Shown piece by piece: positions 25,468 to 61,711 of a stretch of 64,000 nt of DNA. The stretch is from positions 69,453-133,452 of the forward strand of contig JBCDJI010000010.1 of NCBI GenBank assembly GCA_038748025.1. The letters run 5' to 3'. The notes below the pieces were generated by a model. That model saw only the letters and a list, made by a program, of their open reading frames with translations, was not told the origin of the DNA and ran no database searches. The translations under genes were made by a program, and so were the position numbers. Source of the stretch: Verrucomicrobiota bacterium (GTDB lineage Bacteria; Verrucomicrobiota; Verrucomicrobiia; Methylacidiphilales; JBCBYL01). How positions within the stretch are numbered: position 1 is the first letter of the stretch; each line of letters begins with the position of its first letter.

Positions 25468-27909
25468 TTATTCCATACCTGCTTCCCTGACCAGTTGATC
25501 GGATTCAAGTTCCAGTAACGCCGCCACGCCGCCCCCATCAATTGTTTCTTTACCCACTTCCAGAATGACCGGAATCGCAAAGGGAGAGATACGTTCGAGT
25601 CGCACGAAATGATGATGTCCCTGTGCTTCACTCAGCACGGCGTGCAAACGATCGCTGTTTACCATACCACGCGCTGCTTCAACGCGGGTAGCCTCCAGCA
25701 GCACGTGATCGGGCTCATATTGATGCAGCACATCGTAAATTAAATCGGAGGAAAAGGTCACCTGGCGACCCGACTTGCGTTTGCCGGGCAGTTGCCGGTC
25801 GATGAGCCCCGCGACCACCGCCGTTTCCCGGAATGTGCGTTTCATCCAGAAGGACTGATCCAGCCAGGTGCCCAGTTCCTGCTGAATGATTTCAGGATCC
25901 AGCAACGCTGCTGCCGTTGCGGCATCAGCGACCGGTTTGAGTGACCACACTGCCAGGGAGTAATCCGTAGTGACAAACCCCATAGGCTGCAGTCCGCATT
26001 TCTCCATCCGCTGAGTCATCAGCATACCTAAAGTATGATGAGCCGCCTTTCCTGCAAATGGATGCATCACCAGAAACTGCATTTCCTGGCGTGAAAAAGA
26101 CTCAACCAGAAGTTCATTCCTCTGCGGAATATGTGAGCGCCGGTCCTGCCAGGCCAGCCACTGCTGCACCGGCCCCGGAAAATCCGGCCAGTGGTTCCGG
26201 TCCGCAATGCGATCCCTCACTCGTTGTGCCAGTGGACCGGAGAGTGGTAATCTTCCTCCGGCAAAAGCAGGAATCTTAGGCGTATCCCCTTTGGCAGGTT
26301 CGGTTATTACCATCATTTCACGCACACTTTTAAACTCCAGCAAGCGGCCCGAAAACAAAAACGTATCGCCTGGTTGTAGTCCCTGAATAAACCGCTCTTC
26401 CACCTCACCCAGATGCATCCGCTTCCCCATCCGGATTTTAAGATGGGTATAACCGACGATGGTGCCAATATTCATCCGGTAATTGCGCGCGATGCGCTGG
26501 CTAGCTATCTGCAGTCTGCCATCCGGCAATGTCTTAAGCTTGCGGAACTGTTCATACGCTTTCAATGCATAGCCGCCGGTTGCCGCAAAATTTAACGCCC
26601 GGTCAAACAGCTCGCGCGACAATGCGCGATAAGGTCCGGCTGCTTTCACCTCGGCAAATAGCTGGTCGGTCCAAGCCGGGCTTGAACAACATCTTCCTGT
26701 AAGATGCTGGATCAGCACGTCCATGCTGCCGGTGCGTCGGTAATGATTGTCCAGATCATTGACGGTAATGGCATCAATCGCAGCCAGTGCTTCTATGGTT
26801 TCCATCCGGTTCGTCGGAACCAGCACTGCTTTACTTGCCTTGTCCAGTTGGTGATTGGATCGCCCGATGCGCTGCATCAGTCGAGCCACCCCTTTTGGCG
26901 GTCCGATCTGCACCACCAGATCCACGCTGCCCCAGTCGATCCCCAGATCCAGTGACGAAGTGGCCACTACGGCTCGGTATTCTCCATTCGCCAAATCCTG
27001 CTCCAGCTCCAGCCGGTGTTCGCGATCCAGACTACCATGGTGTAGCGCTATGGGCAGGTCCTCATGATTCATCTCCTGCAGGGCCTGATAGGTGAGCTCC
27101 GCTTGTGCCCGGGTATTGACGAATACTATGCTGGTCTGATGCTGGAGGATCATCTGTATTATTTCCGGAATGGCATAGCGTCCGCTGTGCCCCGACCACG
27201 GCAAGCGATCCGTAGCCTCCAATAAAGTGATGTCAGGCACAGCTTTGGTAACCATCTGCTGCTGGTAGGCATTAATGACCCTTACCTGCTCCGGATTCCG
27301 GGCATTCAGATATCCAGCCAGCTCTTCCGGTTCCGCGACTGTGGCAGAGAGCGCAATCAGTTTCAGCTTCGGATTTGCTTGCCGCAGCCGCGCCAGGTTC
27401 AGAGCTAACAGATCGCCCCGCTTGTTGTCCGCCAGCGCGTGCAGTTCATCCAGAATCACATAATCCAGATGTTTAAAATACGCCTCGGCATCCGCGTAGG
27501 AATGGATCAGCGCCAACGACTCCGGCGTCGTCAGCAGCATGTCCGGCGGGTCGGTCATCTGCTTTTTGCGCTGGTAGCTGTTGGTATCGCCGGTGCGGAC
27601 TTCGCACCGCAGTCCCAGTTTCATTTCCAGCAGCGGCACCTGCAGGTTGCGGTGAATGTCTGTAGCCAATGCCTTGAGTGGGGAAAGATAAAGCATCCGC
27701 AGTTTGGATTTAGAAGCAGAAGCTGCCGCCGCATCGATCAGCCCGGGTAGAAAACCCGACAATGTCTTTCCGCCACCAGTTGGAGCAATCAGCAGCACCG
27801 TATCTGCCGAGTGACTCGCCTCAATGACATCCAGCTGGTGCGGATACGGCGCCCAACCACGCGACTCGAACCAATATTGAAAGCGCTCAGGAAGTTTTGT
27901 CATTTTCAT
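25468..27909 (-). CDS. lhr: Ligase-associated DNA damage response DEXH-box helicase (Lhr-like)
   Basis: APTGGGKT (Walker A), ILDELH (DExH), SATV, HHGSL...TSSLDLGID...QIGPPKG..RIGRSNH. The start is MKMTK (27909) or MTK (27903). Confidence 0.85.
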   Translation of the reverse strand: MKMTKLPERFQYWFESRGWAPYPHQLDVIEASHSADTVLLIAPTGGGKTLSGFLPGLIDAAAASASKSKLRMLYLSPLKALATDIHRNLQVPLLEMKLGLRCEVRTGDTNSYQRKKQMTDPPDMLLTTPESLALIHSYADAEAYFKHLDYVILDELHALADNKRGDLLALNLARLRQANPKLKLIALSATVAEPEELAGYLNARNPEQVRVINAYQQQMVTKAVPDITLLEATDRLPWSGHSGRYAIPEIIQMILQHQTSIVFVNTRAQAELTYQALQEMNHEDLPIALHHGSLDREHRLELEQDLANGEYRAVVATSSLDLGIDWGSVDLVVQIGPPKGVARLMQRIGRSNHQLDKASKAVLVPTNRMETIEALAAIDAITVNDLDNHYRRTGSMDVLIQHLTGRCCSSPAWTDQLFAEVKAAGPYRALSRELFDRALNFAATGGYALKAYEQFRKLKTLPDGRLQIASQRIARNYRMNIGTIVGYTHLKIRMGKRMHLGEVEERFIQGLQPGDTFLFSGRLLEFKSVREMMVITEPAKGDTPKIPAFAGGRLPLSGPLAQRVRDRIADRNHWPDFPGPVQQWLAWQDRRSHIPQRNELLVESFSRQEMQFLVMHPFAGKAAHHTLGMLMTQRMEKCGLQPMGFVTTDYSLAVWSLKPVADAATAAALLDPEIIQQELGTWLDQSFWMKRTFRETAVVAGLIDRQLPGKRKSGRQVTFSSDLIYDVLHQYEPDHVLLEATRVEAARGMVNSDRLHAVLSEAQGHHHFVRLERISPFAIPVILEVGKETIDGGGVAALLELESDQLVREAGME

Positions 27910-28312
27910 CCGCAGATGACGCAGATTTTCGCAGATTAAATACCAATCTTTTATATTGGAGGCTCGGGGCACCAAAATTAATTAGCAGCCCTCGGTTTAG
28001 GCCTGTGGCTTTGAGATAATTGATTACTTGAGATTCTTCTACGCCGGTTAGTTTTTGCAGAGCTTTCAATTCTACAATGACCATACCATAACAAATAAAA
28101 TCTGCCTGATATTCTGCGATGACCTCACCCCGATACGATACCGGCAAGCGAACCTCTCGTTCATACGGAATGCCTTGTGCCAGGAAATCCTTTTCGAGCG
28201 CCGTCTGATAAACTGCCTCTAAAAAACCATGCCCTAATTCACGATGGACGGTCATGGCTACACCAATAATGTCATAAGTTTCTTTATCTTTGTTTTTAGA
28301 ATCTGCGTCCAT
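27887..28312 (-). CDS. GxxExxY protein (PD-(D/E)xK nuclease-like), copy 1
   Basis: TVHRELGHGFLEAVYQTAL carries the GxxExxY motif. ADFICYGMVIVELKA has the D...ELK nuclease-like motif. The C-terminal 15 aa are encoded by the repeat arm. Confidence 0.85.
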   Translation of the reverse strand: MDADSKNKDKETYDIIGVAMTVHRELGHGFLEAVYQTALEKDFLAQGIPYEREVRLPVSYRGEVIAEYQADFICYGMVIVELKALQKLTGVEESQVINYLKATGLNRGLLINFGAPSLQYKRLVFNLRKSASSADENDKTS

Positions 28313-28329
28313 CTGCGAAATCTGCGGAT
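27908..28329 (-). mobile_element. GxxExxY cassette 1: gene bounded by inverted arrays of 3 phased CGCAGAT heptamers
   Basis: Arm 27908..27937 is atcCGCAGATgaCGCAGATtttCGCAGATt. Arm 28300..28329 is aATCTGCGtccATCTGCGaaATCTGCGgat. The arms are in inverted orientation with 9-10 bp phasing. Confidence 0.4.
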
Positions 28330-28362
28330 TTTGTTTCTTGTAATGTGCGTTAAGATAAATTG

Positions 28363-29379
28363 ATGAGTCAACCGGAAAGCATCGACTGGATTTACCCGAC
28401 CGAACGCGGTCTCTATGTCGAGCCGGGGAATTTCTACATCGATCCGGTTCGTACGGTAGAACGAGCGATCATCAGTCACGGTCACGCCGATCATGCCCGC
28501 CCGGGAAATCAGCAAGTCTGGGCCACTCCGCAGACCATCGGTATCATGCAGGTGCGTTACCGGAAAGCAGCGGGGGATGAATTACTGGCTCAGGATTATG
28601 GCGAGTCTTTCGAAATCGGTCCGGTAAAACTCTCCTTCGCCCCCGCTGGTCATGTGCTGGGCAGTGCTCAAGTGGTATTAGATTATAATGGCACCCGCGT
28701 GGTCTATTCCGGCGACTACAAACGCAAACCGGATCCTACCTGCCAACCGTTTGAGGTGGTGCCTTGCAATATCTTCATTACCGAAGCGACCTTCGGCCTA
28801 CCGATTTTCCACAATCCGGATCCCGCAGAAGAAATCGAACGACTGATGGGGTCGATGCGACGCCTGCCGGAACGCACACATGTCGTTGGCGTCTATTCGC
28901 TGGGAAAAGCCCAACGCGTCATCGCCCTCGTACGGGAAGCGGGTTATCAGAGACCGATTTATCTGCACGGTGCTTTACAATCGTTATGCGACTATTATAT
29001 GTCCGAAGGTATCGAGCTGGGCCAACTGAAACCCGCAACCGTTGCACAGAAAGAAAGCCTCAAAGGAGCGTTGGTGCTGGCTCCCCCGTCCGCCATTCGT
29101 GAAACCTGGTCGCGCCGGCTGCATCAACCGGTTACCTGCTTTGCCTCCGGTTGGATGACGGTGCGGCAGCGGGTCAAGCAACGTAATGCCGAGCTACCAC
29201 TGAGAATATCCGATCACGCCGACTGGCCGGATCTGATGGATACGATTGAAGCCACCGGCTGCAGCGAAGTCTGGGTAACACACGGACAGGAAGACGCGCT
29301 GGTGCATGTCTGTCGTGAGCGCGGCCTGCACGCCAAGCCTTTGTCCTTGGTCGGCTTTAGCGAGGAAAGTGACGAATGA
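28363..29379 (+). CDS. Ligase-associated DNA damage response exonuclease (MBL-fold / beta-CASP)
   Basis: ISHGHADHA (HxHxDH), SGDYKR, and a C-terminal ISDHADW...WVTHG. It overlaps the ligase start by 4 nt. Confidence 0.8.
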   Translation: MSQPESIDWIYPTERGLYVEPGNFYIDPVRTVERAIISHGHADHARPGNQQVWATPQTIGIMQVRYRKAAGDELLAQDYGESFEIGPVKLSFAPAGHVLGSAQVVLDYNGTRVVYSGDYKRKPDPTCQPFEVVPCNIFITEATFGLPIFHNPDPAEEIERLMGSMRRLPERTHVVGVYSLGKAQRVIALVREAGYQRPIYLHGALQSLCDYYMSEGIELGQLKPATVAQKESLKGALVLAPPSAIRETWSRRLHQPVTCFASGWMTVRQRVKQRNAELPLRISDHADWPDLMDTIEATGCSEVWVTHGQEDALVHVCRERGLHAKPLSLVGFSEESDE

Positions 29380-32664: not shown

Positions 32665-35600
32665 TTAAAATGATTTGCACAATGCTTTAGCGGTTTCGAA
32701 GGCGGCAGGGATACCGGATGGGTTCGTGCCTCCGCCCTGAGCCATTTCGGGACGTCCTCCACCCTTGCCGCCGACATACGGCCCCATAGCTTTGATCACA
32801 TCACCGGCTTTCACCGTTTTCACATAGTCAGGTGATACCGATACGGCCAGTGCTACCCGCTCATTCGCATCACCTGCCAGAACGGCCACACCGTTAAAGT
32901 GTTTTTTCAACTCACCTAATACCACTTGCAGGAACTTGCCATCACCCCCTGCAATGTGCTGAATCAGCACTGGAATGCTGCCGGAATAATCCGCTTGCCG
33001 GGCCCATTCCGGCGCTAACGTTGCCGCCTGGCTCAACAACTCCGACTGTTTGGCTTTGGCCTGGTCTTTTTCCCATTGCTTGATTTCCTCGCGCAGCTGT
33101 TCAATGACATCACGGTTTCCGCTCAGCGCATCCCACCCCACTTGCACCATTTCTTCATCCCAGCGGGTCAGAGACAGTTTAGTGTCCGACTTTTTGGATT
33201 TGAGTTGTTCGTACACGGCGGCCACCTTTTCCTGCTCGTTGAGCAGGTAAGGTCGTAAGGCGTCCCCACAAATCGCTTCGATACGGCGGACGCCAGCGGC
33301 GATGGCTCCTTCATGCACCAATCGGAACGGGCCGATACCCAGTGTACTATCGACATGCGTGCCACCGCACAGTTCCCTGGAAAAGCCGCCGATATCGACT
33401 ACCCGAACCGTCTCCCCGTATTTGTCACCGAAGAACTGGATAATATCAGGATCATGCTTTACCTCCGCATAGGGACGATTATACCACTGAATGCCGGCAT
33501 CGTGCAGGATACGGTCATTCACCAGCTCCCCGACCTTGTCTATCTCATCCGGCTTCATGGCTTCGATGTGTGAAAAGTCAAAACGCAGACGGTCCGAACC
33601 GACGTAGGAACCTTTCTGTTGGACCGTGTTTCCCAAAACTTCACGCAACGCCCAGCCCAGCAGGTGAGTGGCGGAATGGTGCGATTCAATCAGGTGCCGG
33701 CGCCCGGCATCCACACTGGCTTTCAACGGGAAGGAGATATCCTCCAGCATACCGACATCCTCAGTGATGGCGGCGATAGATTCATCGGTGGATTTCTGCG
33801 TGTCGATGATTTCGATCTTCTGACCACCGAACTCAAGCCATCCCGTGTCGCCCAGCTGACCACCCATTTCCCCGTAGAACGGAGTCGGTGAGAGATAGAG
33901 TCGCGCGGTGACCGTGCCGCCCTCTTCAGCCGGCATATCCAGAATGAAGTTGCATACCTCGACATTTACATCAGCTTTGTTTTCAAAACCGACGAACTCG
34001 GTCGGAATCAGGTTTTCCTCCGTTTTATCTTTGACTGAAATCACTGATTTTTTCTGTGCTGCCTTGGATCGTTCACGCTGTTCGGTCATGCACTGTTCAA
34101 AACCGGCGACGTCTACAGCGATACCACGCTCACGCGCCATCAGCTCGGTCAGATCTAGCGGGAATCCGTAGGTATCGAAGAGTTTGAAGGCATCTTCACC
34201 TGAAACTATAGGCTTCTGGCTCGTGTATTTTTTCCAGGCGCCATTGCGTAATTCATCGAATGTATATTTAGCTATAAACTCGGATTTTCCATCATCCGTT
34301 TGTTTGTGAATACGCATACTGTTGTACTCAACCTCTTCCGGAATCTCTTCGTCCTCCCCAAGCCATACCGCATTACTACCATGAGACTGTAGAAAACCAT
34401 CTTTATGCAACTGTGTGACAATTGCATTCGAGAATATTTTATTATCAAACAGGCTAATTCCTTTATCCAATGTCTTGGAAAAGCTCTGTTCCTCAGCCTT
34501 GATAACTTTTTCAACCGTGGCCTGATTGCTACGCAGCTCCGGGAACACATCCCCCATTTCATCGGCGATGGTGCCGACGAGTTGGTAGAAGAAGAGATCA
34601 TGGAATCCGAGCTGGCGACCATAACGCACAGCCCGACGCAGAATGCGGCGCAGCACATACCCGCGCCCTTCATTGGAGGGCAGGATGCCGTCGGCGATGG
34701 AACAGCTCAACGTGCGAATGTGGTCGGCAATGACTCGCATCGCTATATCAATTTCGAATTTCGAATTTCGAATTTCGAAATCAGGCCCTTCAGCTTCAAT
34801 ATCTTCCAGCAAAGTGGATGAGTAGGTTTTCCCGGATAATTCCTCGATCTTACTGAAGATCGGGGCGAACACATCGGTATCGTAATTGGAGACCTGCTTG
34901 GAGAAATCAGTGAAATTCTTAGTGCCCTGCATAATCGAGCACACACGCTCAAAACCCATTCCGGTGTCGACGTGGCAGGCAGGCAGGTTTTTGAAGCTGC
35001 CATCCGGATGGGCATTGAACTGGATGAAGACCAGATTCCAGATCTCGATGCAGCGGGCATCGTCGGCATTCACCAGTGAGCCTTTGGTGTCGCCGTCCGG
35101 CGTCAGATCCATGTGCACTTCCGAGCAGGGACCGCAGGGGCCGGTGTCTCCCATCATCCAGAAGTTGTCCTTCTTGTTGCCATAGACGATGTGCACAGCC
35201 GGATCCAGTCCAGCATCCTCGAGGATCTTTTTCCAGATGTCGTAAGCTTCCTGGTCGAAATCTGCCGGATCCCCTTCGCCCGGTTTATAGACCGTGGCGT
35301 AGAGCCGCTCTTTCGGCAGTTTCCAGCGTTCGGTCAGCAGTTCCCACGCCCATTCGATGGCTTCCTGTTTGAAATAATCGCCGAATGACCAGTTGCCCAG
35401 CATTTCAAAGAAGGTATGGTGATAGGTATCCATCCCGACATCTTCGAGGTCGTTGTGTTTGCCTCCGGCGCGGATACATTTCTGGGTATCGGCAGCGCGG
35501 GGGGGATCATAAGGGCAGGGCTGTTCGTTGAGAAAGATCGGCACGAACTGGTTCATTCCGGCGTTGGTGAAGAGCAGGCCGGGAGAATCCGGCATCAATG

Positions 35601-35676
35601 ATGCGGAGGCCACCATGGTGTGCTGCTTTTCTTGGAAGAAATCCAGAAAGCTCTGTCGAATATCTGCCGAAGTCAT
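32665..35676 (-). CDS. alaS: Alanine--tRNA ligase (unusually long, 1003 aa)
   Basis: FTNAGMNQF, KCIRAGGKHNDLEDVG, HHTFFEMLGNWSFGDYF, the editing-domain HSATHLL...CGGTH, and a C-terminal DHHA1-like GGGRPEMAQGGG. Confidence 0.95.
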   Translation of the reverse strand: MTSADIRQSFLDFFQEKQHTMVASASLMPDSPGLLFTNAGMNQFVPIFLNEQPCPYDPPRAADTQKCIRAGGKHNDLEDVGMDTYHHTFFEMLGNWSFGDYFKQEAIEWAWELLTERWKLPKERLYATVYKPGEGDPADFDQEAYDIWKKILEDAGLDPAVHIVYGNKKDNFWMMGDTGPCGPCSEVHMDLTPDGDTKGSLVNADDARCIEIWNLVFIQFNAHPDGSFKNLPACHVDTGMGFERVCSIMQGTKNFTDFSKQVSNYDTDVFAPIFSKIEELSGKTYSSTLLEDIEAEGPDFEIRNSKFEIDIAMRVIADHIRTLSCSIADGILPSNEGRGYVLRRILRRAVRYGRQLGFHDLFFYQLVGTIADEMGDVFPELRSNQATVEKVIKAEEQSFSKTLDKGISLFDNKIFSNAIVTQLHKDGFLQSHGSNAVWLGEDEEIPEEVEYNSMRIHKQTDDGKSEFIAKYTFDELRNGAWKKYTSQKPIVSGEDAFKLFDTYGFPLDLTELMARERGIAVDVAGFEQCMTEQRERSKAAQKKSVISVKDKTEENLIPTEFVGFENKADVNVEVCNFILDMPAEEGGTVTARLYLSPTPFYGEMGGQLGDTGWLEFGGQKIEIIDTQKSTDESIAAITEDVGMLEDISFPLKASVDAGRRHLIESHHSATHLLGWALREVLGNTVQQKGSYVGSDRLRFDFSHIEAMKPDEIDKVGELVNDRILHDAGIQWYNRPYAEVKHDPDIIQFFGDKYGETVRVVDIGGFSRELCGGTHVDSTLGIGPFRLVHEGAIAAGVRRIEAICGDALRPYLLNEQEKVAAVYEQLKSKKSDTKLSLTRWDEEMVQVGWDALSGNRDVIEQLREEIKQWEKDQAKAKQSELLSQAATLAPEWARQADYSGSIPVLIQHIAGGDGKFLQVVLGELKKHFNGVAVLAGDANERVALAVSVSPDYVKTVKAGDVIKAMGPYVGGKGGGRPEMAQGGGTNPSGIPAAFETAKALCKSF
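34751..34778. repeat. Perfect heptanucleotide tandem repeat (ATTTCGA)x4 inside the alaS coding sequence
   Basis: atttcgaatttcgaatttcgaatttcga encodes DFEIRNSKFEI on the minus strand. Confidence 0.95.
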
Positions 35677-41866: not shown

Positions 41867-44107
41867 TTAAAGATCGACGCGGACTCCACCTGTCGCAGAA
41901 TTCACGATATAGCCTTCCTGTCCGATCTGCAGCTGCCAACCGAGAGTGAAATGAATGTTGTCTGCCTCGGTTAAGGAGGCATTGAACCCGGCCCCGATGA
42001 CTGCAAAATCTGCGTCTGCCTCGCGAGTTGAAACGGTGAAGCTGGCAAGTGCCGGATCGATAAAGGTGGTGGTTACATCTCTCGAATTATCCAGGAACTC
42101 GTGGTGCCAGGCAGCGCTGACATATGGAGCACACCAGCCCCAGTCACCCTCGAACGTCTTGGCCAGTTCAAAGCCAAGTTTCGTGCGTAAGGAATGTGCC
42201 GTCTGATCATCAAAACTGAGGCCCGCTCCGCCCAGTCCGGATTCCTGAAAGTCTTCCACATGCAGTAGAGAATACTGGAGACCCACCATCGGGGTTACGC
42301 GAATACTTCTATCCGCTCCAAAGTGAATGTCTCTGGAAAGTTCGAGCGCGGAGATGAACTGGTGCGCATCTGCATCACTCTCTCCGGTTCCAGTGAACGT
42401 TGGTGATACAATATTACGTTCGTTTTCATAAGCAGTATAACTGTATCCGAGGATGCCGCTGGCAAGCCAGTCACCCCACTGATAACGCGCATAGCCACCG
42501 ACCTGCGCACCATTACCCTCCATGTTTGAACCAAAGGCATCCACATCTGAATCGACACTCTGATATCCAATGTAGCCGCCTGCATTCAGTGCCTCAGAAA
42601 GGTTCTTGCCTGCCCCGATGATTACGGAAGTGCTGACGGTCTCACTTTCTGCCAGACCAGAAATGTCATCCTGTTGCGCGTAGGATCCGGAACCGATGAC
42701 AAATGCCTGCCAGTCGTAAAAAGGATCAAAACCGGAGGCTGCGGCAGTAGCCAGAGTCGCCGCTTCAAGCGAGCCCGTGTCCACCGAGACCAGGCCGGGA
42801 TTGCTCATCGCCAGTAAGTTCTGGTCCATGTTGACCAGCATGGGATCCAGATCCCGGGTATTCCACTGGAAGGCCGTGAGATCTGCCCCCATGGCTGCGT
42901 TACGTCCCTGATGGCGCAGCTGACTGAAAAAATCCCCGGTCATGCGGGTCGCATTATTGAACGCGACACTAGAAAATGCATTTTGATAGACCTGCCCACT
43001 GACTGTCTGGGCCAACTCATTAAGATCGGAAAGCGCGACGCTGTTCAACGCAATGAAGATGTCAATGAATTCAGTACCCGGAGCCGTCGTAACATTGTCC
43101 AGACTGCTGGCAAATCCACTGAGCCCGGGAGCTGTTAGCAGGCTGGAAAACGTCTGGAAACCGGTTACGTTGACGGTAGCAAAACTGTTTAGCGTTAGCG
43201 GACTACCCAGGATTGTAACTGTGCCTGAGCCTCCGGTCGCAATAAGCGCATTGGCGGTGGCCTGCGAAAACCCGCGCCAATTGTTGAAATTGATCGTGTC
43301 GGCTCCACCACCGCCATTGACTGTACCAGTCAGCAGCGAGTATCCATTCAGATTCACCGTATCGGCTCCACCACCACCATTGATCGAGTTACCGCCGCCG
43401 TTGGCTACGATGCGACTCGCAGTAAGGTTTAGGGTGTCATCATTACCAGCTAAACTTAATGCATTACCTCCACCCGATGTTGTAATCGTCGAGTTTATAA
43501 TCGTTACGACGTCGTTCCCGCCAGCGGTATGAATCCCCCGGCCGCCACCGGTTGTGGTAAAGGTGGTATCCGAAATATTTATAACGTCATTCCCTCCTCC
43601 GGCACTGATCCCATCTCCACCGCCCGCAACGGAGATTGTACCACCCGTAATGTTAAAAGTCTCTACATTGCCTGACCCGTTAAAGGCATCTCCACCACCA
43701 AAATTCACAGTAATGTTCCCTGAGCTCCAAACGGTAGCACCTCCCGTAATTGAAATCGCATGATCGCCCGTGCCGGAACCATTCAGAATGATATTGCCCA
43801 TGTGATTCACCGTACCTGAGCTGATACGCACTGCATCCTGTCCGGTAGTAGTAATTGTAGCTCCGCTGTTAATGGTAATGGTGCTGCCGCCATTGTTGGC
43901 ATCAATACCCCGAGTTCCGGTCGTAGTAATACTTCCGCCAACCGTTATGGTATCACCGGCCGCCAGATTGGCAGGCGCTCCTGTCAGGTCACCGGCATTG
44001 GTGGTCGTCGACGAAGTTCCTGCATCCTGAGTAAAATCGACAGCTTGCCCGCTGCTAATGCAGGCAAATATTAGCGCAATAGTAATGGCGTTGTAGCATT
44101 TCATCAT
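41867..44107 (-). CDS. Autotransporter outer-membrane protein with Gly/Thr/Asn-rich beta-helical passenger
   Basis: Signal peptide MMKCYNAITIALIFACISSGQA. The passenger has degenerate GGG(N/A)D..(I/L)N repeats. The C-terminal ~280 aa has alternating aromatic beta-barrel patterns. Confidence 0.75.
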   Translation of the reverse strand: MMKCYNAITIALIFACISSGQAVDFTQDAGTSSTTTNAGDLTGAPANLAAGDTITVGGSITTTGTRGIDANNGGSTITINSGATITTTGQDAVRISSGTVNHMGNIILNGSGTGDHAISITGGATVWSSGNITVNFGGGDAFNGSGNVETFNITGGTISVAGGGDGISAGGGNDVINISDTTFTTTGGGRGIHTAGGNDVVTIINSTITTSGGGNALSLAGNDDTLNLTASRIVANGGGNSINGGGGADTVNLNGYSLLTGTVNGGGGADTINFNNWRGFSQATANALIATGGSGTVTILGSPLTLNSFATVNVTGFQTFSSLLTAPGLSGFASSLDNVTTAPGTEFIDIFIALNSVALSDLNELAQTVSGQVYQNAFSSVAFNNATRMTGDFFSQLRHQGRNAAMGADLTAFQWNTRDLDPMLVNMDQNLLAMSNPGLVSVDTGSLEAATLATAAASGFDPFYDWQAFVIGSGSYAQQDDISGLAESETVSTSVIIGAGKNLSEALNAGGYIGYQSVDSDVDAFGSNMEGNGAQVGGYARYQWGDWLASGILGYSYTAYENERNIVSPTFTGTGESDADAHQFISALELSRDIHFGADRSIRVTPMVGLQYSLLHVEDFQESGLGGAGLSFDDQTAHSLRTKLGFELAKTFEGDWGWCAPYVSAAWHHEFLDNSRDVTTTFIDPALASFTVSTREADADFAVIGAGFNASLTEADNIHFTLGWQLQIGQEGYIVNSATGGVRVDL

Positions 44108-44256
44108 TTTCTCTCCGATACGGTTTTGCACCATTCCGTTCAACGAAGCAAGTACCATTCCAAAGACTTTGGTTTATCATATTAAATATCTATTATATTG
44201 TTAGGTGTGTGATCTGATAGCATTGACATTATCTGTCTTTCTGGCAATCGGTACCC

Positions 44257-44949
44257 ATGCCCATAGAGGAATCACAGAAGCCACGCCCCTGCTGGTGGCG
44301 CCTGCCTTGGGATCTGTTGCTAGCTCATTTTTCCGAATGGGCACGTTTCCGGAAACCGACGACGCTTCTCCTGCTAGCCGTCAGTCTGGTCTCCTTAATA
44401 CTCTACCTCCAGGATGCGGAGCTGGCTGCCCGGGTCAGTCCCGAACATCGTGCAGGATGGGTCAATGAGCTGGCGCGAGGATTGAGCTACTGGGGTGATT
44501 TTCTGACCTTCTGTATTCCCGTGGGCGTATTATTCTGGCTTGGCGGCGCGTTGCTGAAACGAATTCCCTGGCAACGTGCTGGCGTTGCCTGCCTGCTCGG
44601 AGCATGCCTGGCCGGCCTGACCGCTGATTTGATCCAGTTCTCCGTCGGCCGCGCCCGGCCTCGCCATGATACAGAGATACAATTTGCTCCCTTTAATACT
44701 AAAACGGAACAGCACTCCTTCCCTTCCGGACATTCCGCCACCGCCTTCGGCAGCGCAACTGCTCTGGCTGTATGCTATCCCCCCGTCTCGGTTCCCCTGC
44801 TGCTGGGTGCCAGCGGTGTGGCGTGGTCACGCGTCTATCTGGGTGCGCACTACCCTTCCGACATCGTGATGGGCAGCGGTATTGGATTGGTTTTTGGCTT
44901 CCTGCTTGGAAAGACCGCCCGAAAAACTAGAACCACTAATGAACACTAA
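44257..44949 (+). CDS. PAP2 superfamily phosphatase (membrane)
   Basis: The acid-phosphatase motifs are RARPRH, PSGHSATAF and SRVYLGAHYPSD. The last 5 codons and the stop lie in a heptamer-repeat arm. Confidence 0.7.
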   Translation: MPIEESQKPRPCWWRLPWDLLLAHFSEWARFRKPTTLLLLAVSLVSLILYLQDAELAARVSPEHRAGWVNELARGLSYWGDFLTFCIPVGVLFWLGGALLKRIPWQRAGVACLLGACLAGLTADLIQFSVGRARPRHDTEIQFAPFNTKTEQHSFPSGHSATAFGSATALAVCYPPVSVPLLLGASGVAWSRVYLGAHYPSDIVMGSGIGLVFGFLLGKTARKTRTTNEH

Positions 44950-45022
44950 TTATCTGGAAAACCAGCACTCTTGATATATGAAAAAAGAAATTAGTGAAAA
45001 TTAGTGTCCATTAGTGGTTAAA
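44931..45022 (+). repeat. Cargo-less heptamer doublet (CACTAAT type) at the PAP2|mnmG junction
   Basis: The 5' arm is aacCACTAATgaaCACTAAT (44931..44950). The 3' arm is ATTAGTGaaaATTAGTGtccATTAGTGgttaaa (44990..45022). 44989..45022 is 34/34 identical to the reverse complement of 60490..60523. Confidence 0.85.
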
Positions 45023-60492: not shown

Positions 60493-60929
60493 AACCACTA
60501 ATGGACACTAATTTTCACTAATTAACGAACCACTCTCTTCCATTCTAGTTGGGGGTGGCTGGCAAAATTAATCAGGTAGCCAACTTTCATGCCTGCTGCT
60601 TTGAGGTAATTAAATAACGGAGCAAAATGCTCCGGTGCCAGTTTTTGAACAGCCTTTAGTTCTACTGTAATTTTTTCACTTACGATCAAATCCGGTTCGT
60701 AAGTCTGATTTAAAGAGCGCCCTTTATAATAAAGTTTTAACTTCGGCTTGGATTTGAAGGAGATATTCTGAATATCCAGCTCGTGTTCCAGGCATTCCTG
60801 ATAAACAGCTTTCAGAAAACCACTTCCTTTTTCATTATAGACTTCAAAAGCGGCAGCCATTAGTTCGTAGCCTTCCTGGTTGTATAAATTTTCCCCGTCA
60901 TTAGTGGCCATTAGTGTTAATCAGTGGTT
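60493..60929 (-). mobile_element. GxxExxY cassette 2: gene bounded by inverted arrays of 3 phased CACTAAT heptamers, inserted between purQ and purL
   Basis: Arm 60493..60523 is aacCACTAATggaCACTAATtttCACTAATt. Arm 60900..60929 is ATTAGTGgccATTAGTGttaATCAGTGgtt. The phasing is exactly 10 bp. Confidence 0.4.
60522..60911 (-). CDS. GxxExxY-family protein (PD-(D/E)xK nuclease-like), copy 2
   Basis: EVYNEKGSGFLKAVYQECL is the motif with E replaced by K. EPDLIVSEKITVELKA gives PD...ELK. 129 aa. Confidence 0.85.
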   Translation of the reverse strand: MATNDGENLYNQEGYELMAAAFEVYNEKGSGFLKAVYQECLEHELDIQNISFKSKPKLKLYYKGRSLNQTYEPDLIVSEKITVELKAVQKLAPEHFAPLFNYLKAAGMKVGYLINFASHPQLEWKRVVR

Positions 60930-61607
60930 TGATAACAGTGAATCGAAGAGTTTCTTGCCGTTGTCAGATCCAAGCAGGATTTCAGCGGCACGCTCCGGGT
61001 GGGGCATCATGCCGAAGACGTTGCCTTCACGGTTGCAGACGCCGGCAATGTTGGATACCGAGCCGTTGGGATTTGCTGCTTCGATCGCTTCCCCGTTTTC
61101 ATCCACGTAACGGAAAATGACCTGCCCATAAGATTCCATTTCTTTGAGCGTATCCTGATCGACAGTATAGTTGCCCTCTCCGTGGGCGATGGGGATCTGA
61201 AGCAGCTCCCCATCGTGCATGTGGGCAGTGATTTTAGTCCGGCTGTTGTCTACCCGCAGCGTCACTGTTTCACAGATGAAGTGCATATCGCGGTTTCGCA
61301 CCAACGCTCCCGGCAGCAGTCCCGCTTCACATAAGATTTGAAACCCGTTACATATCCCGATGATGGTTTGTCCATTGGCGGCCGCTTTTTTGACTGCATG
61401 CATAATTGGAGAAAAGCGGGCAATGGCACCGCATCGCAGATAATCCCCATAGGAAAATCCACCCGGGACGATGATGGTTTCATCGGGCTCCAGCGTTTCT
61501 TCTTTGTGCCAGACCATACGTGCCGGCTGGCCCATGACATCCCGGACGGCCCGCAGGCAATCCTGGTCACAATTGGAACCGGGAAATTGGAGAACAGCAA
61601 ATTTCAT
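60921..61607 (-). CDS. purQ: Phosphoribosylformylglycinamidine synthase glutaminase subunit PurQ
   Basis: FAVLQFPGSNCD...GICNGFQIL...MPHPER. The last 2 codons and the stop lie in the repeat arm. Confidence 0.95.
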   Translation of the reverse strand: MKFAVLQFPGSNCDQDCLRAVRDVMGQPARMVWHKEETLEPDETIIVPGGFSYGDYLRCGAIARFSPIMHAVKKAAANGQTIIGICNGFQILCEAGLLPGALVRNRDMHFICETVTLRVDNSRTKITAHMHDGELLQIPIAHGEGNYTVDQDTLKEMESYGQVIFRYVDENGEAIEAANPNGSVSNIAGVCNREGNVFGMMPHPERAAEILLGSDNGKKLFDSLLSNH

Positions 61608-61624: not shown

Positions 61625-61711
61625 AACCACAGAGGACACGGAGGCCACAGAGCAGGAACATTTAATAAATCCGTTTTTAAAAGCTCTGTGTTTCCTGTGT
61701 CCTCTGTGATT
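61625..61711 (-). repeat. Cargo-less heptamer doublet (CACAGAG type) filling the purS|purQ junction
   Basis: aacCACAGAGgaCACGGAGgcCACAGAGc, a 29-nt spacer, then gCTCTGTGttTCCTGTGtcCTCTGTGatt. The phasing is 9 bp. Confidence 0.8.

Follow-up and report, generated by a model that had tools for sequence, protein, structure and literature searches.

We describe a cassette in which the gene of a small GxxExxY-family nuclease lies between two inverted arms, each built from three copies of one 7-base word. It occupies 422 bp of a 64,000-nt stretch of DNA from a Verrucomicrobiota bacterium (assembly GCA_038748025.1, contig JBCDJI010000010.1, positions 69,453..133,452 of the forward strand), hereafter the window, and its neighbours are the four ligase-associated repair genes for a helicase, PdeM, an exonuclease and a ligase. 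Units of this kind very probably form a family of discrete, horizontally transferred cassettes, bounded by inverted repeats and accompanied by gene-less derivatives. A first-pass annotation, made from the letters of the window alone, had put forward a discrete cassette, mobile or serving as an RNA module, in place of an ordinary gene with a terminator. This proposal is supported: paralogs do carry comparable arrays, and relatives differ in whether the unit is present at this site.

On the forward strand, CGCAGAT starts at 27911, 27920 and 27930, and its complement ATCTGCG at 28301, 28311 and 28320; the heptamer blocks (27911-27936 and 28301-28326) are exact, with spacings of 9,10 in one arm and 10,9 in the other. 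A repeat finder returns the two arms as a 30-nt inverted repeat, 83% complementary. CGCAGAT is found 16 times in the window against 10.4 expected, and six of these 16 copies fall within the two 26-nt stretches of the unit. Exact triple arrays of a 7-mer at 8-12 nt spacing occur four times, compared with a mean of 0.015 and a maximum of 2 in 200 dinucleotide shuffles, and all four are parts of elements of the heptamer-arm type. The inverted three-heptamer arms around a GxxExxY open reading frame (ORF), reported at first pass with their coordinates and 9-10 spacing, are thus real and far beyond chance. A fifth candidate array (40371/40816) is a chance similarity within an ABC-ATPase coding region.

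Gene and arms are interlocked. The start codon of the nuclease is made of the AT of the middle heptamer and the next G (CGCAG-ATG-GA), as had been pointed out, and the first residues (MDADS) and the tail (NLRKSASSAD) of the protein are translated arms. Also in line with the first reading, the ORF runs through the distal arm and ends inside lhr, the co-oriented helicase gene downstream of the unit: its stop codon (27887-27889) lies 14-20 nt within lhr, for which 27909 and 27903 are the two candidate starts. The codon at 27909 consists of the terminal GAT of the downstream arm plus a G, and the same junction is found at an orthologous locus, L171. On the other side ~30 bp are left between the arm and the start of the divergent exonuclease gene, the unit filling nearly all of the divergent region. 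With its upstream neighbour divergent, the unit represents a minority arrangement, and it is the first cistron of lhr-pdeM.

The window holds three further elements with heptamer arms, one gene-bearing and two gene-less hairpins (Table 1). The second cassette is located between purQ and purL, in the same direction as both. Its arms read CACTAAT three times (60496-60522) and ATTAGTG, ATTAGTG, ATCAGTG (60900-60926); the purQ stop codon lies within heptamer 1, and here too the middle heptamer supplies the nuclease ATG. The CACTAAT-class hairpin is flanked by mnmG and by a PAP2-like ORF, its upstream gene, which ends inside the arm. The R arm of this hairpin and the adjoining flank are identical to the second cassette over ~35 nt, spacers included, at a distance of 15 kb.

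Table 1 Features of the cassette locus, further heptamer-arm elements of the window, and sites where codons lie in arms. Coordinates refer to the window unless a locus is named; F and R denote the upstream and downstream arm in gene sense.
Feature	Coordinates	Strand	Remarks
Upstream arm "F"	28300..28329	-	ATC-CGCAGAT-tt-CGCAGAT-gga-CGCAGAT; contains the gene's ATG
GxxExxY / PDDEXK_3 nuclease ORF, 141 aa	27887..28312	-	folded domain aa 11-124 = 27941..28282
Downstream arm "R"	27908..27937	-	ATCTGCG-aaa-ATCTGCG-tc-ATCTGCG-GAT
Ligase-associated DEXH (Lhr-like) helicase, lhr	25468..27909	-	TIGR04121, E 9e-304
Ligase-associated exonuclease	28360..29379	+	TIGR04122, E 2e-136; divergent from the 422-bp unit
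Second cassette	60494..60928	-	GxxExxY paralog 60522..60911, 39-40% identical to the first
Gene-less hairpin, CACTAAT class	44933..45017	.	2 intact F and 3 R heptamers, ~39 nt between
Gene-less hairpin, CACAGAG/CTCTGTG class	61627..61709	.	between purQ and purS
Codon-in-arm sites, window	60921..60930; 44931..44949; 27903..27912		
Codon-in-arm site, L182	2990..3005		
Codon-in-arm site, L186	1460..1475		
Codon-in-arm site, L188	2501..2944		

The same architecture recurs across the family. A scan of a genome collection for homologs gave 80 loci from about 20 phyla, and arm-gene-inverted arm is the commonest map among them. Under a strict rule (three heptamers per arm, at most one mismatch each) an upstream arm and an inverted downstream arm accompany 57 of 89 full-length copies; a looser rule finds both arms in 79 of 97 hits. 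Together with the second paralog of the window, these counts answer affirmatively whether other paralogs carry arrays, a check suggested at first pass. Protein homologs with 64-88% identity span many phyla, and their termini, (M)NPQITQMDAD... and ...NLRKSAQSAD(K), are translated arms. A logo of 159 arms reads ATC-CRCAGAT-KA-CRCAGAT-KNA-CRCAGAT, with 1.2-2.0 bits at heptamer positions and 0.1-1.0 bits in the spacers. The outer boundary is sharp: information drops from ~1.9 bits to less than 0.3 bits beyond ATC. Spacing is 9,10 in 160 arms, 9,9 in 48 and 10,10 in 28.

Other clades place other words in the same layout: CACTAAT/CACTAAA (window, L182, L185, L186), CACGAAT (L084, L182), CACGAAA (L181), CGCGAAA/CGCTAAA (L180), CGCAGAA (L178) and CGCCAAG (L058). 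C1, C3 and A6 are common to all heptamer classes, and the consensus guessed at first pass, C-R-C-N-R-A-N, accommodates every word except the degenerate ACC-type words of L002 (ACCAGAT/ACCGAAT). The word follows the protein, being CGCAGAT or CACAGAT in clade 1 and CACTAAT in clade 2; N-terminal peptide signatures of the CGCAGAT type and of the CACTAAT type number 79:2 among the proteins of clade 1 and 1:27 among those of clade 2. Searched with a profile, 1.84 billion representatives yielded 29,652 clusters at 50% identity (E <= 1e-3), and many tails among them show further triplet peptides, such as NLRNLRI, PITPITPI, TDYTDYTE and SVTSVTSVD. We found the arms described neither in Rfam nor in the searchable literature; TIGRFAM/InterPro entry texts and closed journals were out of reach, and a prior mention there is possible.

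Some loci depart from the common map. In three Bacteroidota-like contigs from IMG/VR (L002, L004, L177) an inverted arm-loop-arm hairpin stands upstream of the gene and a direct arm copy after it, with units GGTTCAT, TTTCATT and CGGAATA. In L014 (OW818681.1, 1940..3300) three identical arm-gene-arm copies follow in tandem with a 443-bp period, adjacent arms being ~20 nt apart. Gene-less arm-pair clusters or runs of arms in one orientation stand beside a gene-bearing copy in L013 (1590..1950), L022 (1580..2460) and L066 (1..800); the run in L022 counts five upstream-type and then three downstream-type arms, and the clusters recall those of bacterial interspersed mosaic elements (BIMEs). The sole candidate for another cargo within an arm pair (L032, 1500-1920) turned out to be the 3' end of an upstream gene beside an unpaired arm-like array. 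In L005, from a related metagenome-assembled genome, the contig ends at 6398 within the downstream arm, and its protein carries a partial annotation; short-read assemblies seem to be broken by the arms.

The heptamers are under strong purifying selection and the spacers are not. Between the window unit and its L171 ortholog, 83 of 114 amino acids are identical and four-fold sites are saturated (11 of 44 identical); 40 of the 42 heptamer bases are unchanged, and about half of the spacer bases differ. The arms of L005 differ from those of the window in spacers only. Across phyla CRCAGAT is constant, with only position 2 toggling between G and A. An ordinary gene, its flanks a chance resemblance or a simple terminator, is a reading to which we give practically no credence. 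The right arm does make a weak terminator-like site on the forward strand; four triple arrays where 0.015 are expected, an architecture and logo shared by about 20 phyla, and heptamers conserved where synonymous sites are saturated refute it nonetheless.

The ORF matches TIGR04256 (E 2e-41, 140.9 bits, cut-off 35) and PF13366 (E 6e-39, 133.6 bits, cut-off 22) and no other family, over residues 10/11 to 122/124. D71 and E81-L82-K83 are invariant in a 41-sequence alignment (A2), and E32 of the GxxExxY motif is kept in at least 90% of the aligned sequences, which bears out the signature and the intact D...ELK motif read at first pass. The AlphaFold model, built from 41 sequences, has a predicted local distance difference test (pLDDT) score of 85, above 90 over most of the core, with strands at residues 50-60, 63-74 and 78-83. 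Disorder is predicted for the tails encoded by the arms, where residues 1-6 and 129-141 have scores under 50. Best Foldseek matches are Cas4 SSO0001, lambda exonuclease, the nuclease domains of AddAB/AdnAB and MGME1; splicing and cap-snatching endonucleases match more weakly, as do Hjc and a PD-(D/E)xK homing-endonuclease domain, and template modelling (TM) scores are ~0.5 or lower throughout. By its invariant catalytic residues and modelled fold the protein is a member of the PD-(D/E)xK superfamily, and it is likely an active metal-dependent nuclease. A search by sequence found no solved structure, and identity as a defence-system or phage protein is set aside, with no match in the PADLOC or PHROGs libraries. 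The only classification naming the family lists the function of PF13366/TIGR04256 as "Unknown" (PMC3424549).

Most copies have protein-coding genes on both sides, and the units are found chiefly in short spacers separating genes of one direction. Taking neighbour orientation from crude ORF calls and gene pairs of the same loci as controls, we find the upstream neighbour co-oriented in 62 of 73 near cases versus 86 of 130 control pairs (Fisher p = 0.005); for the downstream neighbour the same loci give no significant enrichment. In 32 of 57 elements the end of a long co-directional ORF falls inside the upstream arm or at most 20 nt from it, and in 30 of 57 a long ORF starts at most 35 nt from the downstream arm. 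In the window, the gene's strand shows no sigma-70-like promoter, a result of limited value in Verrucomicrobiota.

Some host genes draw signals of their own from arm bases. Both purQ and purS end in ..AAC CAC TGA/TAA inside heptamer 1 (AAC CAC TGA for purQ of the window), and in L182 the sequence TAATG combines the stop of purQ with the start of the cassette gene. The cassette ORF of Chlorobium shares 11 nt with sbcD and 4 nt with sbcC. Start and stop codons within spacers give a weak signal, ATG occurring in 24 of 32 upstream versus 16 of 32 downstream arms.

Located in transcribed spacers, the arms could act as RNA. In this explanation, the main rival, they pair in the host's polycistronic transcript into an interrupted stem of ~30 bp around the ORF (10-11 bp, small loop, 7-8 bp, small loop, 7-8 bp). 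RNase III-type host RNases, or the encoded nuclease, would then process or stabilize the transcript and control translation from the stem-buried ATG, while gene-less hairpins would act in mRNA like repetitive extragenic palindromic (REP) or Correia elements. The minimum free energy fold of the sense transcript agrees with it: the ORF is enclosed by helices of 10, 7 and 8 bp, with a 2x2 loop after the first and a 3x3 loop after the second, and these are exactly the three heptamer helices. Empty hairpins fold very stably, with energies between -29 and -43 kcal/mol and z-scores between -6 and -9 (in the window, -6.1 and -6.8 for the CACTAAT-class hairpin, -7.5 and -9.2 for the CACAGAG one). On this modelling any transcribed copy will form the arm stem, whether or not the stem is the selected feature.

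Pairing across elements supplies evidence for the RNA module and against it. In an alignment of 40 elements the heptamer helices are 96.6-97.5% paired. Partner heptamers show G-C at position 2 in 115 cases, A-T in 32, A-C in 12 and G-T in 6, and mixed position-2 patterns agree in register between the arms (AGA/AGA three times, GGA/GGA and AGG/AGG). At the first base of the two spacers, 80% and 60% of cells are paired; double changes between U-A and G-C number 12 and 9 there, and none of 500 shuffles attains the observed covariation score. The other spacer bases pair in 20-48%, and in a separate column test spacer identity between arms is at chance except for the first base. The non-complementarity of spacers noted at first pass is right for the window copy; over the 40 elements the first spacer base shows a tendency to pair. 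Beyond that base, the lack of complementarity fits sites read on duplex DNA. As a test of RNA pairing, G-U tolerance is uninformative: it shows no sense-strand preference, with 6 G-U versus 12 A-C, counts inflated by the L014 triplicate.

An RNA role also draws support from the preference for transcribed operon spacers, the co-orientation with the upstream gene, the lack of a sigma-70-like promoter, and the existence of PD-(D/E)xK RNases, and the weak fold matches to splicing and cap-snatching enzymes. It leaves unexplained why one word is repeated threefold and why it is frozen across about 20 phyla amid synonymous saturation. Selection on pairing alone permits compensatory drift and CRCAGAT is frozen nonetheless, which argues that the word itself is selected and not just its pairing. 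The chance-level pairing of second and third spacer bases and the absence of any Rfam match to the arms, even at E <= 10, likewise count against it, and the covariation could come from shared arm ancestry under two-state constraints. The pairing data fit pairing selection as well as they fit inverted-copy arms diverging under such constraints, and they do not separate the DNA and RNA models. Overall, we judge the RNA module to be unlikely as the primary explanation.

Comparison of sites documents gain and loss. Between lhr and the exonuclease gene, the window, L005 and L171 carry orthologous copies of the unit (the exonuclease being ~88% identical in L005 and 82% in L171), while the unit is absent from L168 (82%), L170 (76%, spacer 96 bp) and L172 (70%, spacer 131 bp). 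None of 80 distant metagenomic exonuclease loci carries a GxxExxY gene; in those with lhr directly divergent, the spacer measures 81-94 bp. The presence/absence polymorphism looked for after the first pass thus exists. The unit's absence from those 80 loci marks it as an insertion unconnected with the repair system, and the idea that the gene belongs to ligase-associated repair is rejected on these 80 loci and on the three of six closer relatives that lack it. In L168 (GCA_964351865.1, 3740..3960) the same spacer holds an unrelated insert, similar to a miniature inverted-repeat transposable element (MITE), with perfect 38-nt inverted ends (AGTAACCCCGAAAGCGTTCGCATACACGTTAACATAAG) and ~110 nt between them; the spacer has thus been hit by two different small elements.

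The pur operon shows a comparable turnover. The purQ/purL spacer is occupied in the window, L185 and L182, whose copies are orthologous (69% amino-acid identity between window and L182, with an intact ORF), and unoccupied in L186. In the purS/purQ spacer, L186 and L187 (1440..1925) carry a gene-bearing CACTAAA cassette, the window and L185 an empty CACAGAG hairpin, and L182 (2150..2300) an empty CACGAAT hairpin with a longer loop; this reflects either repeated insertion at one spot or in-place replacement of the word. Protein identity across phyla reaches 78-80%, above the 73% of orthologs in related Verrucomicrobiota, which implies horizontal transfer; the neighbouring exonuclease keeps ~55% across phyla.

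Gene-less arm pairs number 31, with loops of 13-140 nt; one more, of 370 nt, is no true pair. Some units have decayed into gene-less hairpins: two duplicated elements, in L025 and L032, are copies with an internal deletion in which the gene survives at its 5' and/or 3' ends, and gene remnants are recognizable in the hairpins of L025, L032 and partly L017. None were found in the two hairpins of the window nor in that of L182, so not all empty pairs are visibly deletion derivatives. Element flanks read TTAA/CC..GG/TTAA or AAT/CC..GG/ATT (slashes mark the element boundary); they are palindromic and inseparable from an extension of the inverted repeat. Empty orthologous sites yielded no insertion junction, their intergenic DNA being too diverged to align.

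That intact copies reside so long at one site speaks for a maintained function of some kind, and against a simple transposon that jumps and decays. The cassette might be a domesticated or regulatory module, its arms serving as operators for self-repression of the nuclease or for control of the flanking genes, its gene serving the host or being addictive, and its mobility ancient. The ORF has indeed stayed intact beyond saturation at two loci (lhr/exonuclease, window versus L171; purQ/purL, window versus L182), the nuclease ATG sits inside an arm, and start and stop codons of host genes are embedded in arms. This account leaves unexplained the gene-less arm pairs in other operons, the transfer across phyla, and the many paralogs per genome with different words, and PADLOC and PHROGs contribute no match in its favour. 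We consider it quite improbable.

The explanation that we tentatively prefer, and whose probability we place close to but somewhat short of even, is by analogy: the heptamers would be read by the cassette's own nuclease, and this interaction would spread or maintain the arms together with the gene, in the manner of REP sequences or of homing. Three words within one window, and a word that tracks the protein clade, make a universal host factor an unlikely reader; the protein travelling with the arms is the obvious candidate. The heptamers would then be candidate double-stranded DNA binding sites for this nuclease, three per arm and about one helical turn apart. Iterated binding sites occur in transposon ends. 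The enzyme would cut at or near the sharp outer boundary (ATC/C), or cut gene-less arm pairs, and the cutting would disseminate or maintain arms plus gene. The parallel would be a REP-associated tyrosine transposase (RAYT) acting on REP or REPIN sequences, or a homing nuclease that repair copies into an empty site. Expression would rely on read-through and translational coupling with the upstream host gene, and the window cassette would have become the first cistron of lhr-pdeM while having no functional tie to ligase-associated repair.

Several points weigh against this preferred explanation. Binding, cleavage and mobility are what we infer from comparisons of sequence. Co-inheritance alone could account for the clade-specific words, and the in-register matching of the arms (AGA/AGA, GGA/GGA) is equally expected from base-pairing selection. 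No peptide signature is seen in 85 of 120 clade-2 proteins; the DNA of one of them (P0249, L186) was inspected, and arms are present. No target-site duplication was identified; the TTAA/AAT flanks also extend the palindrome. Identical copies in different contexts were not found in the sampled loci, which offer only tandem or local duplicates (L014, L017, L025); exact-sequence lookup of P0094 and P0249 gave one context each. We know of no transposase type that consists of a 125-aa nuclease core without an additional DNA-binding domain. Finally, orthologs persist at one site past synonymous saturation with their ORF intact, which looks more like maintained function or a domesticated element than like an active transposon.

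A bolder generalization, which we regard as rather unlikely, would make GxxExxY proteins sequence-specific nucleases that read a modular 7-base code (C-R-C-N-R-A-N, three sites per arm) and drive an unrecognised class of selfish or symbiotic hairpin elements in prokaryotes. The nuclease may in that case mobilise the arrays, or home by cutting gene-less arm pairs, repair copying it in. Such a system would be a counterpart of REP/RAYT based on a PD-(D/E)xK enzyme, with a range of about 20 phyla.

A family of about 30,000 clusters that travels with a clade-specific word in inverted triplets offers a testable substrate hypothesis, pairing each protein with its cognate array. If the nuclease does read the word, the mapping of clade to word would provide a natural set of related specificities. 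A recurrent annotation artefact is also explained: the odd tails NPQITQMDAD, NLRKSAQSAD and their variants are translated arms. In addition, the arms define a repeat family that appears to break assemblies and from which host genes borrow stop and start codons.

Two further features of the window were noted. AATTTCG forms an exact tandem repeat of 4.3 copies at 34750..34779, within a long ORF (32665..35676, reverse strand). A 763-aa ORF at 41867..44158 on the reverse strand is rich in Gly/Thr/Asn repeats (GGG(N/D)D..., TITTSGGGN...); its C-terminus resembles a beta-barrel, and the protein has the look of an autotransporter or adhesin.

Among known systems, 23S rRNA intervening sequences were proposed as an analogy at first pass. 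Those of Leptospira and Coxiella have inverted repeats around a small ORF; their known ORFs belong to the four-helix-bundle family PF05635 and not to GxxExxY. The cassette shares with them inverted repeats that form a stem round an ORF of ~120 aa. It differs in its iterated-heptamer arms, in its ORF family and in location: no sampled locus lies in or next to rRNA, most copies stand between protein-coding genes, and at the gathering threshold Rfam reports nothing in the window and a single tRNA in 16 loci. The analogy therefore gains no support, and we deem it very improbable that the cassette is an intervening-sequence relic whose stem and ORF evolved for RNase III excision, with all other copies as strays.

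Integron cassettes likewise contain a promoter-less single ORF and 7-bp core words arranged in attC as imperfect inverted repeats with unpaired spacers. They have one attC with R''/L''-L'/R' boxes at one end, in an array beside intI/attI, whereas arms stand at both ends of our ORF; the CRCNRAN words are unrelated to GTTRRRY, and the cargo is always the same protein family. The heptamer cassettes occur singly within ordinary operons, with no integrase, attI platform or cassette array at them, the integrase neighbourhood having been searched unsystematically.

The REP/RAYT analogy, also drawn at first pass, is strengthened by the gene-less hairpins built from the same arms. In REP/BIME (REPIN)-RAYT systems as here, a nuclease-type gene is flanked by its own short inverted repeats, the repeats occur elsewhere without the gene as hairpin-forming pairs or clusters in transcribed intergenic spacers, several repeat classes share a genome, each apparently with its own protein clade, and copies persist vertically for long. 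The cassette enzyme is a ~125-aa PD-(D/E)xK core with matches to PF13366/TIGR04256 only, and not an HUH/Y1 (IS200/IS605-like) transposase; its gene is enclosed by the arm pair, occurs in multiple copies per genome and is often transferred between phyla. REP palindromes carry a conserved GTAG or CGTC tag (PMC3733652). Each cassette arm is made of three iterated heptamers and not of one imperfect palindrome, and its consensus lacks either tag. The cassette thus fails the defining tests for RAYTs (no HUH enzyme), for integron cassettes and for rRNA intervening sequences.

Transposons with terminal inverted repeats and MITEs such as the Correia elements of Neisseria share with the cassette inverted ends of ~30 nt with a sharp outer limit, gene-less copies deleted internally, and insertion into spacers that are transcribed, the RNA then forming a long hairpin. 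The ends of Mu, Tn7 and CACTA-type transposons also carry iterated words bound by protein, a role that is putative for our heptamers. At only about 420 bp, the cassette differs in having no DDE, serine or tyrosine transposase, no demonstrable target-site duplication and no identical dispersed copies among those seen, and in a promoter-less gene that is translationally coupled to a host gene.

With free-standing homing endonucleases (including the PD-(D/E)xK enzyme I-Ssp6803I) the differences are that cassette sites are many and unrelated, that the conserved part is the carried flank and not the host gene, and that cleavage is presumed. What the two have in common is that a small nuclease gene has entered seamlessly between conserved genes, that its expression relies on host transcripts, and that presence/absence polymorphism and horizontal spread are seen. 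By the same comparison, a gene-less arm pair could be the uninterrupted target that is split by the gene.

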